DNA of 51,679 nucleotides from Actinomycetes bacterium (GTDB taxonomy: Bacteria; Actinomycetota; Acidimicrobiia; Acidimicrobiales; JAJZJN01), in contig JAJZJN010000002.1 in assembly GCA_021851165.1 (NCBI GenBank), forward strand, positions 1-51,679, in the 5' to 3' direction. Each line of letters begins with the position of its first letter. Positions within the stretch are counted from its first letter, which is position 1. The notes beneath the pieces are model-generated. The model ran no database searches. It saw only the letters and a program-made list of their open reading frames with translations, and was not told the DNA's origin. Positions 26,007-49,212 of this stretch are shown piece by piece. The translations under genes and the position numbers were made by a program.

Positions 26007-27514
26007 GCACCCCGGAGCCCTCTCCCCCGCGGCTCTCACTTGGCACCCTGAGCTCGCTCGGTTCCAGCCTGCGTCCAGCCATCGATCCTCGCGCGGTTGC
26101 AGTGGGTATCGTCCACCTGGGGCTGGGAGCCTTCCATCGAGCTCACCAAGCCATCTTCACCGAGGATGCGATGCTGGCCACCGGCGAGTTGTCATGGGGC
26201 ATATGCGGAGCCAGCGAGCGGAGCAGCGCCGCAGTTGACCGCCTGCGCCCCCAAGACGGCCTGTACACAGTCGCGGCCCGAGACGCCAACGACGAGGCGC
26301 TTCGCGTCGTAGGTGCTCTACGCGAGCAGCTCTTCGCCCTCGGCAACCCCACGGAGCTGCGCCAGCGCCTTTCGGACCCCACGGTGCATGTGGCAACCGT
26401 GACCGTGACCGAGAAGGGCTACCGCCATGATCCGGCCTCTGGCCACCTCAACCTGGAAGACCCGGAAGTGGCTGCCGACCTGGCAGGCCGTCCGCCAAGG
26501 ACCGTGGTATTCCAGCTCGTGGCAGGCCTACGGGCACGCTTTGCAGAGGGAGCCGGGCCGATTGCCATCGTCAGCTGCGACAACCTTCCAGGCAACGGAG
26601 TCCTGCTGCATCGACTCGTCAGTGAAGCCGCAGAGCACCTTCCCCCGCCAGAGGCTACGGCCCTTCTCGACTGGATGGCCGCGAATGTCACGTTCCCCTC
26701 CACACTTGTCGACAGGATCGTGCCGGCCACCACGGCTGCCGACGTGGCCCATATCTCTGCCAGGCTAGGACTTCACGATGCTGCTCCGGTTGTCACCGAG
26801 CCGTTCAGTCAGTGGGTGATCGAGGACGCTTTTCGCGCGTCTCGCCCGGCATGGGACACCGCGGGTGCCCTCATCACGCGCGACGTGGTTCCGTACGAGA
26901 CCATGAAGCTCCGTCTTTTGAACGCCAGCCATTCCGCGATTGCCTACCTGGGTGGCCTCGCCGGATGTGCAACAGTTGCCGAGGCTCTGGACAACTCCGA
27001 CTTGGCCGACTATGCGAAGCGCCTGATGGACGAGGACGCGTCCCCGACGTTGAGGGTTCCCGATGGGTTCGATCTTGCAGCGTACAAGGCATCGATCCTT
27101 GCCCGCCTGGCAAACCCAGCGCTTACGCACAGTCTTGCCCAGATCGCGGCGGATGGATCTCAGAAGCTGCCGGTCCGACTGCTCGCGACAGCCCGGGATG
27201 CTCTTGCCGGTGGTACCGATTTCCGCTGGGTAGCACTCGCCGTCGCTGGTTGGATGCGATACATGACAGTCCGGCAGGCCGATGACGCGAGCCCCATAGT
27301 GCCTGACGATCCTCTAGCCGGCGCCGTGTCACATGCCGCGGCCGGTGCGGACAACCCTCGCTCTCTCGTCGCCAGATTGCTTGGAATCGAGGAGATCTTC
27401 GGTCCTGACCTGCGAGAATCCGCTGCGTTCTCCCAGATGCTCGTTGGGGACGTAGATCACCTCGCTGCAGATGGCGCGCTTCGCACGATTGCCATGGCAC
27501 TGCACGGGCGATGA
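26003..27514 (+). CDS. Mannitol dehydrogenase family protein (UxuB-like mannonate oxidoreductase)
   Basis: [57 protein letters not shown]. Confidence 0.92.
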
Positions 27515-28641
27515 CCGAGCCGGCTGCGCTGCGAGCTGCCTTGATCGGCTACGGTCTCTCGGGCCGCTTCTTTCACGCGCCTTTCCTCACTACGACCCCC
27601 GGCCTCAGGCTCAGCAGCATCGTCACCTCCGATTCGCAGCGGAAGTCGCAAGCACAAGCCGATCATCCAGGTGTCACGGTGTTCAACCATCCAGATGACC
27701 TATGGGCAAGGGCCGGTGAACATGATCTCGTTGTCGTAGCCACCGCGACGCCGTCACACGCGTCTCTTGCGATCCAGGCGATAGAGGCTCGATTGCCTGT
27801 AGTCGTGGAGAAGCCGCTCGCGCCCGATGCCCGCACCGCTCGGGCGTTGGCCGATCTAGCACGACTCCGTGGCATCCCGCTGACCGTCTTTCACAACCGT
27901 CGCTGGGACGCGCGAGCGGCCTTGGACCCGTCGGGCGGACTTATCCCGCTGACCGTCTTTCACAACCGTCGCTGGGACAGCGACCAATGCACCCTGCGAC
28001 TGCTCCTCGCGGCCGGGAAGCTGGGCCGCGTCTATCGCTACGAGGCGCGATTCGAGCGATGGTGACCAGATGCGCGGCCGGGGAGCTGGCGCGACCGTCT
28101 GGCTACAGAAGGTGGGGGGGGCGTGCTCCTCGACCTTGGCAGCCATCTCGTCGACCAGGCGATCGAGCTATTCGGCGCGGTGACACACGTCTACGCGGAG
28201 GTCGTGGCCCACGACCACCCTGCCGATAACGAATCCTTCGTGGCCATGACTCATTCCTGCGGAGTGCGGTCTCATCTGTCGATGGGATCGGTTTTCGCCG
28301 GACCAGGACCGCGACTACGTGTCCTGGGGAGCAGGGCTGCTTTCATCGTCGAACACCTTGACGGCCAGGAAGCGGCACTACGAGCGGGCCGCCTCCCAAG
28401 CGAGCCAGCCTTCGGGACGGAAGCTCCAGAGTCCTTCGGTCAGCTGCATATCGGAAACCTGAGCGAGGTTGTCCCGAGCGAGCCTGGCAGGTGGCAGTCG
28501 TTCTACTCGTCGCTGGTCGAATCCCTGACCGAAGGCACTCCCCTGCCTGTCGACGCACTCGATGCCGTGAAGGTTGTCGAAGTTCTCGACGCAGCGCGCC
28601 GCAGCTCCGAGTCGCACACGGTGCAGTGCATGGAACTGTAG
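27511..28641 (+). pseudogene. Gfo/Idh/MocA oxidoreductase pseudogene (in-frame 69-bp insertion plus premature TGA)
   Basis: ORFs 27511-28065 and 28123-28641 are in the same frame; reading through gives FERW*PDARPGSWR..GGGVLLDLGSHLVDQA. TGA 28063-28065 sits where Arg (CGA) is expected. VFHNRRWD is duplicated. Confidence 0.85.
27874..27978. repeat. 36-bp exact direct repeat flanking a 33-bp unique insert
   Basis: ATCCCGCTGACCGTCTTTCACAACCGTCGCTGGGAC at 27874-27909 and 27943-27978; insert GCGCGAGCGGCCTTGGACCCGTCGGGCGGACTT. Confidence 0.95.
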
Positions 28642-37610: not shown

Positions 37611-38879
37611 TCATCGGATCCGTGCTCCATCGTCGCTGGAACCCTGGTCACTGGAACCCTGGTCACTGGAACCCTGGTCGCTGGAACCCTGGTCTCTGGA
37701 ACCCTGGTCTCTGGAACCCTGGTAGCTGGAACCCTGGTAGCTGGAACCCTGGTCACTGGGCACCGGGGCTATGCTCACTCCGAGCAGTCCGGCTGCCTCG
37801 GACACACCGCCCGACGGGGCGGCCTCGTCGAGCGCCCGCAGTGCACCAGGGGTATCGAGGTCGTCGTCCAGGCGCGCTCGCACGGCATCCAAGCCCGCCC
37901 CGCCAATGCCGGCCGCGCGCCAGCGCGCCAGGCGATCCGCCGCCTCTACCAGATCGCCAGGCGTCCACTCCCAGTCGTCACGGTAGTGGTGCTCCAGGAT
38001 GGCCAGACGGATCACCTCGGGCTCCCAGCTACGAAGGAGATCGCTTACGAATACGAGGTTCCCGATCGACTTGGACATCTTCTGTCCACCCAGACCGACC
38101 ATCCCGACGTGCATCCAGTGCCGGACGAAGGGAACCCCGGTGACAGCCTGGGACTGCGCAGCCTCACACTCGTGATGGGGGAATACCAGATCCCGCCCGC
38201 CTCCATGAAGATCGAGCGTGGTACCGAGCTCCCGCACGGCCAGTGCCGAGCACTCGATGTGCCAGCCAGGCCTACCAGGTCCGAAGCGAGACTCCCAGGC
38301 AGGCTCGTCTGGAAGCGACGGTTGCCAGAGCACGAAATCCAGTGGGTCGCGCTTGGCTGGATCGTCGGGATTTCCGCCGCGTTCTGCAGCCAGGAGAAGC
38401 ATCTCCGCCCGATCCAGGTGGCTCACCTGCCCGAAGCTCGGGCAGCTCGAGACGTCGAAGTAGACCGCGCCATCGGACTGATAGGCATGACCGGAGTCGA
38501 GCACCTCGCCAACGAGCGACAGGATGTCCGGAATGGCAGAGGTCGCCCTTGGCTCGGCATAGGCTGGAAGCAACCCGAGCGCCTTCATGTCGGCATCGAA
38601 GCGCGCCACCTCTTCGGCGGCGAGGTCCAGGTAATGGACTCCGAGCTCCCGGGCTTTACGAAGGATGTCATCGTCGACATCGGTGATGTTCCGCACGCAT
38701 CGGGTCTCGTGTCCCATGTCCCTAAGCCGCCGCTGGAGAACGTCGAAGGTCAGATACACCGCTGCATGCCCGAGATGGGCAGCGTCGTAGGGTGTAATCC
38801 CGCACGTGTACATCGTGACGACCGGGCCAGGAGTGAACGGCACTACAGCGCGCCGCGCCGTGTCGTACAGACGGATCAC
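37611..38879 (-). CDS. mshC: Cys:GlcN-Ins ligase MshC (mycothiol synthesis; CysRS paralogue)
   Basis: CGITPYDAAHLGHA, ERGGNPDD, GRPGWHIECS, KMSKSIGNLVFVS, DDLDTP; no anticodon-binding domain. Confidence 0.85.
   Translation of the reverse strand: MIRLYDTARRAVVPFTPGPVVTMYTCGITPYDAAHLGHAAVYLTFDVLQRRLRDMGHETRCVRNITDVDDDILRKARELGVHYLDLAAEEVARFDADMKALGLLPAYAEPRATSAIPDILSLVGEVLDSGHAYQSDGAVYFDVSSCPSFGQVSHLDRAEMLLLAAERGGNPDDPAKRDPLDFVLWQPSLPDEPAWESRFGPGRPGWHIECSALAVRELGTTLDLHGGGRDLVFPHHECEAAQSQAVTGVPFVRHWMHVGMVGLGGQKMSKSIGNLVFVSDLLRSWEPEVIRLAILEHHYRDDWEWTPGDLVEAADRLARWRAAGIGGAGLDAVRARLDDDLDTPGALRALDEAAPSGGVSEAAGLLGVSIAPVPSDQGSSYQGSSYQGSRDQGSRDQGSSDQGSSDQGSSDQGSSDDGARIR
37636..37759. repeat. 15-bp tandem repeat x8 in the mshC 3' end
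   Basis: CTGGAACCCTGGTnn with nn = CA,CA,CG,CT,CT,AG,AG,CA; encodes QGSSD/QGSSY/QGSRD. Confidence 0.97.
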
Positions 38880-39663: not shown

Positions 39664-39746
39664 GCCCTGCCCAAGCCGGCCCTGCCCAAGCCGGCCCTGC
39701 CCAAGCCGGCCCTGCCCAAGCCGGCCCTGCCCAAGCCGGCCCTGCC
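39664..39746. repeat. 15-bp perfect tandem repeat x5.5, intergenic
   Basis: GCCCTGCCCAAGCCG five times plus 8 nt, between the chelatase stop and the npdG start. Confidence 0.97.
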
Positions 39747-47949: not shown

Positions 47950-49208
47950 TTCGCCATGCCCGCTTCCTCGCTGCTGGCAACTTGCTCGCGGCCGCCGTCG
48001 GCCCGCCGGTGCCGCGCACCCCTGTCGCGGCCGAATGTCCACCTAGCCAGCTCGCTCGTGTAATGCCAGATCACAGGGCTGCACAGCGAGCACGCGAGCA
48101 GGGCCGACACGTCCCGGCTCAGTCTGACCGAACGGGCGATGTCCTTCACCTCCGGGGCCTTGCCTCGTCCGAGACGCGCCCGTACCTCCACGATGGAGCC
48201 GTATCGGTTCTCCCCGCCTAGGCGCAAGTCGAGAGCAGCGGCAAATGCCGCTTCGGCTACACCTGCGTTCGGGGAGGGATGCCTGGGGGCGTCCTGCGTG
48301 ACGGCACGCCAGATCGGGCGCGCCTGGCGAGGACGCACCGCCACGACGCACGCAGCGGTCAGGCGTGCAGGAAGCCAGTTCGCCACGTCGTCCAGGCGGG
48401 CGCTTGCCCATCCGAACCTGGCGTAGCGTCCGTCGCGATATCCAACCATCGAGTCGAGCGTGTTGACCGCCCGGTAGGCAAGAGCACCCGGCGCACCGGC
48501 CAGGGCTCCCCACAACGCTGGCGCCACCACCGCGTCGACACTGTTCTCGGCTACTGATTCCACCACCGCCCGTGCCATCTCCTCAGCTCCGAGGCCGGCC
48601 GGGTCGCGCCCGACAAGAGCGTTCAATGCCAGGCGAGCACTATCGAGGTCGCCCGAATCGAGCATGCCCGCTACCTCCGTTGCACTGCGCCGGAGACCCC
48701 TGCCGGCACTGGCTACACATACCGCGGCCGCTGCAGACAGAACTTCCACCGTCCCCACGCCCCGCGATGCTCGCCTGGCACAATCCGTCTTCCCGGGACC
48801 GCCGCACCAGCATCCACGATGTCTGGAAGGAACAGCCGCACGGAGCAGTCGGGCTGCCCCGGCCGTCGCAGCGATAGTTGCAATCCCGGCCACGAGGCCG
48901 CTCGCCACCCCGGCAATCGCGAGCATCACACCAGACACACGGCTGTCCCGCCACCACCTGCTGTCCCAGTGGCCCACCAGCTTGCCGAACAGAGCCACCG
49001 GATGGACGCGTTGTGGCGGCTCACCAAGAAGCCTGTCGCACAGAAGGCCGAGAGATGCCCCCGCCCCGTAGAGCCAGGTCCGGGTCACTGGCACACGGGT
49101 CACTGGCACACGGGTCACTGGCACACGGGTCACTGGCACACGGGTCACTGGCACACGGGTCACTGGCACACGGGTCACTGGCACACGGGTCACTGGCACA
49201 CGGGTCAC
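47946..49208 (-). CDS. cbiB: Adenosylcobinamide-phosphate synthase CbiB (CobD)
   Basis: GEP..HPV, VGRD, ESVAEN..D, YRAVNTLDSMVGY, ARLDDVANWLPAR, HPSPNAG..EA; GAGGAG RBS before GTG 49208. Confidence 0.93.
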   Translation of the reverse strand: MTRVPVTRVPVTRVPVTRVPVTRVPVTRVPVTRVPVTRVPVTRTWLYGAGASLGLLCDRLLGEPPQRVHPVALFGKLVGHWDSRWWRDSRVSGVMLAIAGVASGLVAGIATIAATAGAARLLRAAVPSRHRGCWCGGPGKTDCARRASRGVGTVEVLSAAAAVCVASAGRGLRRSATEVAGMLDSGDLDSARLALNALVGRDPAGLGAEEMARAVVESVAENSVDAVVAPALWGALAGAPGALAYRAVNTLDSMVGYRDGRYARFGWASARLDDVANWLPARLTAACVVAVRPRQARPIWRAVTQDAPRHPSPNAGVAEAAFAAALDLRLGGENRYGSIVEVRARLGRGKAPEVKDIARSVRLSRDVSALLACSLCSPVIWHYTSELARWTFGRDRGARHRRADGGREQVASSEEAGMAN

Positions 49209-49212
49209 TGGC
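49081..49212. repeat. 15-bp perfect tandem repeat x8.8 at the cbiB 5' end
   Basis: CGGGTCACTGGCACA eight times plus 12 nt; encodes (VTRVP)n. Confidence 0.97.

Follow-up and report, generated by a model that had tools for sequence, protein, structure and literature searches.

A 36-nucleotide duplication around a 33-nucleotide insert in an Acidimicrobiales oxidoreductase gene as a candidate scar of off-target spacer integration

How does a stretch of 36 coding nucleotides come to stand twice, letter for letter, around 33 nucleotides that resemble neither flank, in the middle of a metabolic gene? The question is raised by a locus in the genome of an Actinomycetes bacterium of the order Acidimicrobiales, which we analyzed within a window of 51,679 nt (the whole stretch of DNA under study). 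The usual sources of direct repeats offer no ready answer: slippage yields adjacent copies without foreign filler, and the target-site duplications of insertion sequences are much shorter and flank a whole element. The locus has in common with both that its direct repeats stem from a single mutational event. The first-pass annotation of this DNA had proposed a natural off-target spacer acquisition by Cas1-Cas2 that disrupted the gene, and here we ask how far this proposal holds.

Anatomy, empty site and host gene

Sequence comparison of the region at 27874-27978 bore out the structure that had been described, an exact 36-bp duplication around a 33-bp filler. Identical 36-mers lie on the forward strand at 27874-27909 (R1) and 27943-27978 (R2), with a 100% match and a start-to-start distance of 69 nt. 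Such an exact recurrence of a 36-mer within 69 nt is far beyond chance. The insert between them (S, 27910-27942, forward strand) has a G+C content of 76% and is indeed unlike its surroundings, with identities of 12% and 24% to the equal-length downstream and upstream flanks, respectively. The imperfect inverted ends of the unit, also pointed out before, can be read in the sequence as 7/11 matching positions (counted from the sequence). The whole unit is in frame: the surrounding open reading frame (27511-28641) encodes IPLTVFHNRRWD twice, once from each copy, and the insert encodes ARAALDPSGGL. Whereas a simple tandem duplication would consist of contiguous copies, with any filler equal to flanking sequence, this filler has the low flank identities given above and is missing from the empty allele described below. 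Neither is the unit a bona fide CRISPR array, as it has two copies only, lies inside a coding frame and is found in an assembly without cas genes.

The source genome is a metagenome-assembled genome (G000) of 206 contigs of 2.6 kb or more, with a total length of 2.66 Mb, a G+C content of 65% and a completeness of 93%. The window is its contig C184, and its nearest relatives in the reference genome set belong to the same order at closest. Parts of the window were present in 14 sequencing runs; the five studies behind them concern mine drainage, mine tailings or sediment, and the site was compared in four of these runs (X1, X5, X9 and X10), using contigs rather than reads. In the Logan k=31 contigs of X1 (study P1), a 93-nt piece corresponding to 27880-27972 consists of 30 nt of R, the filler and 30 nt of R. 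A separate 36-nt piece in this run coincides exactly with R and has about double the depth of the flanks, as expected of a 36-nt repeat in a k=31 graph. The downstream piece in X1 differs from the window at three sites. A 33-kb contig from X5 (study P2), at a depth of 39.7, skips exactly 27874-27942. A contig from X9 (study P3) likewise omits exactly this interval, and at both junctions the 36 nt fit either side of the 69-nt gap. The site had no coverage in X10.

Both alleles were also found as proteins. Protein P0003 (353 aa, on 8 contigs) lacks 23 residues that are present in P0002 (376 aa, without a stop, on 2 contigs of up to 100,659 nt), and these residues are the sole difference between the two. 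A second insert-bearing protein, P0125, is encoded on an ENA contig. The structure is thus supported by independent contigs, with the filler path in X1, the empty site in X5 and X9, and both alleles in protein databases. Among more distant homologues, the motif occurs once in 80/80 metagenome loci (identity 58% or less), in agreement with the single copy in the near-identical allele P0003 and with the prediction that orthologues would carry one copy; the metagenome protein scan returned homologues at or below 58% identity only, with neither the filled nor the empty allele among them. The event is a 69-nt insertion, made up of the filler and one copy of R, into a single-copy site, R1 alone being present in P0003 and in the contigs of X5 and X9 that carry the empty site. 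By comparison of these alleles and homologues, the ancestral state is a single copy of the target. The insertion is recent, because R1 and R2 are identical, and it is polymorphic between studies, that is, between natural populations.

The host gene (27511-28641, forward strand, a single reading frame throughout) encodes an oxidoreductase of the Gfo/Idh/MocA family, as assigned by the Pfam domains PF01408, PF22725 and PF02894 on its homologues, some of which are called scyllo-inositol 2-dehydrogenase (NADP+) by some sources. The duplicated segment encodes a motif conserved across this oxidoreductase family. The earlier claim that the insertion disrupted a gene stands only in part. The insertion is in frame and by itself leaves the reading frame unbroken, and a stop-free allele with the insert exists (P0002). 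The window allele does contain an in-frame TGA (28063-28065, forward strand), but this is a separate, later change that is private to it: all four compared runs read A at position 28063, so that the codon is AGA (Arg). The window allele has two more private substitutions, at 28045 and 28083; at 28045, 28063 and 28083 it reads G, T and G, against T, A and T in every covering run, and P0002 and P0003 have R and S where the window has a stop and A. Because all covering runs agree at these three positions, the substitutions are later than the insertion, and the order of events is the empty site, then the insertion (as in P0002), then the three private substitutions, one of which created the TGA. 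The C-terminal 172-aa fragment of the host protein is a separate NCBI protein with four accessions. The three substitutions are all transversions and fall within 39 nt, 67-105 nt downstream of the insert; such a cluster could be a recombination tract, the product of error-prone repair or a consensus error.

Filler source, cas genes and other units in the same genome

We searched for the source of the 33-nt filler at several scales. Within the 2.66-Mb assembly, the filler shares no 14-mer with any other site, neither it nor R has another copy, and the best other site by Hamming distance matches the filler at 23/33 positions, equal to shuffled versions. Nor is the filler the end of an IS or a fragment of some larger duplication. 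There were 0 exact filler matches in viral, metagenome and genome contig collections, which may omit this or near genomes, chance-level blastn hits only against phages and plasmids (E of at least 0.3), and 0 matches with up to 3 mismatches among 400 other genomes of the order. A search for a protospacer and its PAM, suggested by the first-pass annotation, therefore came up empty, as no filler source was found among the viral, phage, plasmid, metagenome, genome or host sequences searched. Closer to the unit, Smith-Waterman alignment of the filler against ±1 kb on both strands revealed no significant local template (shuffle P 0.175). The first 11 nt of S have an exact inverted match at 27813-27823 (minus strand), 50 nt upstream of R1, which could be the trace of a template switch; it lacks significance, with P 0.175 when ±1 kb is searched and P 0.05 for ±100 nt. 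Tests for a mosaic of several templates likewise gave no significant result (P 0.05-0.18).

The cas1 and cas2 genes and arrays that were to be sought in the rest of the genome were not found in this 93%-complete assembly. It contains no match to Cas1 (PF01867), Cas2 (PF09827) or Cas4g/Cas1g (NF049935), and no CRISPR array or CRISPR-repeat-like sequence. A tblastn search with the cas-locus ORFs of 12 relatives found housekeeping genes only; one such match, on C49, is a P-type ATPase. A cas island could be missing from the assembly, because it is 93% complete and in 206 contigs. No Ku was found in the assembly either, and a Ku-dependent end-joining model was rejected for this reason.

The immediate context of the unit was compared with genuine spacer integration sites. 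On the minus strand the unit is preceded by the flank adjoining R2 (27979-27988), which together with the first 6 nt of R scores like a leader-repeat junction, at the 99th percentile of random sites in this assembly. We gave this score little weight, because the same matrix, built from 12 leader-repeat junctions, cannot tell the dispersed units of the relative G077 (see below) apart from random sites (P 0.39). Many of those units have an AGC motif upstream, which is missing here, and R is not repeat-like, its best match to type I-G repeats being 17 of 36 positions (P 0.12).

A proposed scan of the genome for other 36-bp duplications around short fillers gave a mixed outcome, with no other 36-nt unit and about nine isolated exact units of other, non-CRISPR sizes (R 24-42, S 19-78). 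The sizes of these nine are 42+20, 38+19, 33+27, 25+30, 24+25, 24+31, 24+65, 28+50 and 30+78. Gene ends, in several cases 3' ends, and disordered coding regions hold most of them (the units include C24:29364, C111:7485, C62:6995, C140:18676, C196:35056, C24:12451, C63:3749 and C186:310), and their fillers have no source in the assembly. Because there are about nine such odd-sized units, another process or an assembly artefact makes units of this kind in the genome, and from their size spread we estimate a roughly 10-30% chance that such a process would yield a 36/69 unit by coincidence. The other isolated units with R of at least 16 number 39; R is 35-37 in none of them, and the period falls at 69-74 in one. 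Nor does the period spectrum of the genome peak at 69-74; it shows only the harmonics of abundant tandem repeats of 15 and 18 nt.

Removal of S+R in silico lengthened some open frames at the other units, and one such case (C196) was discarded as a spurious fusion of Nramp and acyl-CoA dehydrogenase genes. The 38+19 unit lies in a disordered part of a FliK-like protein (C111), and a protein search for alleles of this ORF returned nothing at 1e-30. Another exact unit, 33+27+33 with a period of 60, occupies positions 1-93 of the window in frame; its filler partly resembles the repeat (12 of 14 positions), and a contig-end artefact and a diverged tandem repeat are both possible readings of it. Perfect tandem repeats are frequent in this genome (139 per Mb, whereas 661 kb of other loci had 29 per Mb). 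They are many-copy arrays of 15-18-nt units, and 15-nt arrays are present in the window at 37632-37759, 39664-39746 and 49081-49212.

Two further units of the genome have a type I-E geometry. The first (C138:19087-19175, L121) is 28+33, and its duplicated segment matches the type I-E repeat of the relative G036 (28 nt, period 61) at 17 of 28 positions (P 0.001), and the second (C82:3046-3137, L118) is 30+32, with a duplicated segment that matches this repeat at 16 of 28 (P 0.007), with P values relative to random segments of the assembly. On the basis of this resemblance, both suggest past integrase activity in the lineage, of another subtype.

CRISPR systems and dispersed units in relatives

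Cas1 was found in 30/151 genomes of the order, a count that takes in G000 (no match) and the unpublished G042. All 12 of the Cas1 loci fetched (12/12) adjoin an array, with repeats of 36 nt (10 loci) or 37 nt (2 loci). As 12/12 arrays use 36-37-nt repeats, R, at 36 nt, is exactly as long as the repeats of the dominant system in the lineage, so that the comparison of repeat sizes favors the first-pass proposal. Spacers in the 12 arrays are mostly 34-38 nt long, and S lies at the short edge of this range: 33-nt spacers make up 6/520 of the array spacers, vs 3/43 among the ectopic units of G077. An insert of 33 nt would be attainable for such integration.

Other array types in the order have 36-nt repeats with a period of 66, 36-38-nt repeats with a period of 64, and I-E-like 28-nt repeats with a period of 61 (loci L204 in G143, L207 in G133 and L208 in G036). 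Several adaptation modules therefore circulate in the order, since arrays of differing repeat and period coexist. Single units were also seen in or beside the cas loci of G116 (L113:7869-7978, 38+34) and G038 (L112:4829-4928, 26+48, period 74), and these are possible candidates for ectopic integration.

The relative G077 has a type I-G locus by NCBIfam (Cas7g, Csb2, Cas3g, Cas4g/Cas1g and Cas2). In 420 kb around this locus (L106 17900-19901 and L124-L143, G077:C1:534400-954300), we found 43 isolated repeat-insert-repeat units outside the array, after subtracting 5 low-complexity or tandem rows from 48 listed. Their periods are tightly bunched, with 3, 4, 17, 18 and 1 units at periods of 69, 70, 71, 72 and 73, respectively, and about 0-1 units at each of the other periods from 45 to 110. 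Every unit duplicates its own, unrelated 36 nt, and the inserts of 33-37 nt are all different. Three of the units share the 36+33 geometry of the window unit, and two of these three are exact (G077:C1:582659 and 926631). The two copies are identical in 16/43 units and match at 29-35 of 36 positions in the remainder, so that the events differ in age. No insert has a full-length source in the 420 kb or a match among 62 array spacers.

The targets of the G077 units are not CRISPR-repeat-like (mean match of 11.4 of 36, vs 11.6 at random sites). An AGC lies within 5 nt upstream of one end in 21/43 units, vs 12.9% of random sites (P ~1e-8, for a motif chosen post hoc), and echoes the ...AGC[G/T] leader ends of the arrays of relatives. 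The depletion of open frames at the units fits an intergenic location and gene breakage alike. The units cluster near 580-590, 723-729, 752-757, 890-897 and 925-929 kb, and one of them (L106:18624) has the form R-S-R-S-R, with the same insert twice. The G077 units look like natural off-target integrations by a type I-G integrase. No such units of any size were found in 400 kb of the Cas1-negative G006, and the Cas1-positive G088 and G111 had 0 ectopic units outside their arrays in about 415 kb each.

Weighing the explanations and relation to known systems

The likeliest single explanation for the unit in the oxidoreductase gene, though at about even odds, is that it is the scar of one off-target Cas1-Cas2 spacer integration. 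The proposed course would begin inside the oxidoreductase gene with a Cas1-Cas2 integrase that measures out 36 nt, probably a Cas4/Cas1-Cas2 resembling that of type I-G. The two 3' ends of a 33-nt prespacer would be joined to opposite strands, 36 nt apart, and gap repair would then copy the 36 nt on both sides. The outcome would be the 69-nt in-frame insertion, still polymorphic in natural populations, with the premature TGA arising afterwards on the insert-bearing allele. This fits the anatomy, the match in repeat length (36 nt vs the 36-37-nt repeats of the order), the single-copy ancestor, the precise empty site (X5 and X9, and P0003 minus exactly 23 residues), the G077 units of the same anatomy, including 36+33, and the I-E-like units of this genome; a filler without a source is usual for spacers and was counted in favor as well. 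The points counted against it are an assembly with no cas genes or arrays, and hence no cas1 and cas2 in the same genome as the unit, the background of odd-sized units, the short insert, a target motif that is not clear, and the zero units in G088 and G111. The anatomy, the precise empty site, the recency of the event and the existence of such a reaction geometry in the order were observed directly. What we infer is the part of an integrase in making the unit and, because none is present in the assembly, the past or present possession of this enzyme by the lineage.

A wider claim, to which we give slightly less than an even chance, is that the type I-G Cas4/Cas1-Cas2 is a genome-wide insertional mutagen in Acidimicrobiales and that the window unit arose by the same reaction, with the cas genes lost or unassembled. 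If true, G077 carries ~100 ectopic scars per Mb, of many ages, each with a 36-nt duplication and a 35-nt insert, and in nature off-target adaptation would repeatedly give rise to in-frame insertions, broken genes and the seeds of new arrays.

A process unrelated to CRISPR is a serious alternative, though we lean against it: a template switch or break repair may have duplicated the 36 nt, with 33 nt of untemplated or multiply templated sequence as fill and the match in size a coincidence. Such a process would account for the nine or so units of arbitrary size with source-less fillers in a genome both prone to repeats (139 vs 29 perfect tandem repeats per Mb) and assembled without cas genes, and the exact inverted copy of the first 11 nt of the filler at 27813-27823 is what a template switch might leave. 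The local-template signal is not significant, however (P 0.05-0.18), classical end-joining is unsupported in the absence of Ku, and the comparison units do not share the size in question, with none at R 35-37 and one at period 69-74 among the 39. Moreover, the other units of this genome are known from the assembly alone, so that some may be assembly artefacts, and no such units of any size occur in 400 kb of G006. That the window unit itself arose artificially, through assembly or binning of a strain-mixed metagenome, is very improbable. The genome is in 206 contigs and a similar unit stands at the very start of the contig (window 1-93), but the filler path recurs in the X1 Logan contigs, with a downstream piece that differs from the window at three sites, the insert-bearing protein is present in other assemblies (P0002 on 2 contigs, P0125 on the ENA contig), and the empty allele is clean in two other studies. 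It is also unlikely, if less so, that the unit is the footprint of another mobile element or integrase, be it an excised element with att-like repeats, an integration with a long stagger (casposase-type or other), or gene conversion from an unassembled paralogue. A duplication plus an insert is by definition an integration-type scar, and 7% of the genome is unassembled. Against this, neither the filler nor R has another copy in the assembly, no 14-mer of the filler recurs there, and we know of no mobile element that leaves a 36-bp duplication around 33 bp.

If the integrase reading is right, the unit is a natural instance of an off-target integration that is already known, and the observation in G077 is the more striking of the two. 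Nivala, Shipman and Church (2018, Nat Microbiol 3:310) reportedly described off-target integration by Cas1-Cas2 in E. coli, which is said to be able to seed new arrays ("neo-CRISPR"). A natural unit whose exact empty site survives in sister populations would illustrate cleanly, from the field, the autoimmune-like price of CRISPR adaptation, and would also show how new arrays could start. With 43 scars in 420 kb, G077 offers a ready system for studying type I-G target preferences from genome data alone. In the main texts of the open-access literature, we came across no account of natural ectopic units of this kind spread over a whole genome.

According to one report, off-target integration can spawn new arrays, with evidence outside E. 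coli that is circumstantial and limited to two other species (10.1101/148544). The events in E. coli needed overproduced Cas1-Cas2, as stated in another (PMC7054753), and off-target integration is also treated in a citing passage of a third (PMC6698737). Like the neo-CRISPR loci outlined in these papers, our unit has a spacer-sized insert flanked by a repeat-length duplication at a non-CRISPR site. Unlike them, it is natural and sits within an enzyme motif that is conserved; it is also polymorphic among populations in the field and has a 36+33 geometry instead of type I-E sizes, in an assembly without cas genes.

An enzymatic parallel is type I-G adaptation, in which a Cas4/Cas1 fusion works with Cas2 and the integrase makes two staggered transesterifications, as summarized in PMC10504553. 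The unit shares with this system the 36-nt repeat length and the roughly 33-37-nt inserts of the order's I-G loci. Canonical integration takes place at the leader-repeat junction, whereas our unit has no leader or array and its target is unlike the I-G repeats examined. Streptococcus thermophilus provides a further comparison, with ectopic spacer acquisition inside CRISPR arrays described in PMC7999890 and PMC5338259. As in those events, integration at our locus would have occurred away from a leader-proximal repeat; the S. thermophilus events use a genuine CRISPR repeat within an array, whereas this unit uses coding DNA.
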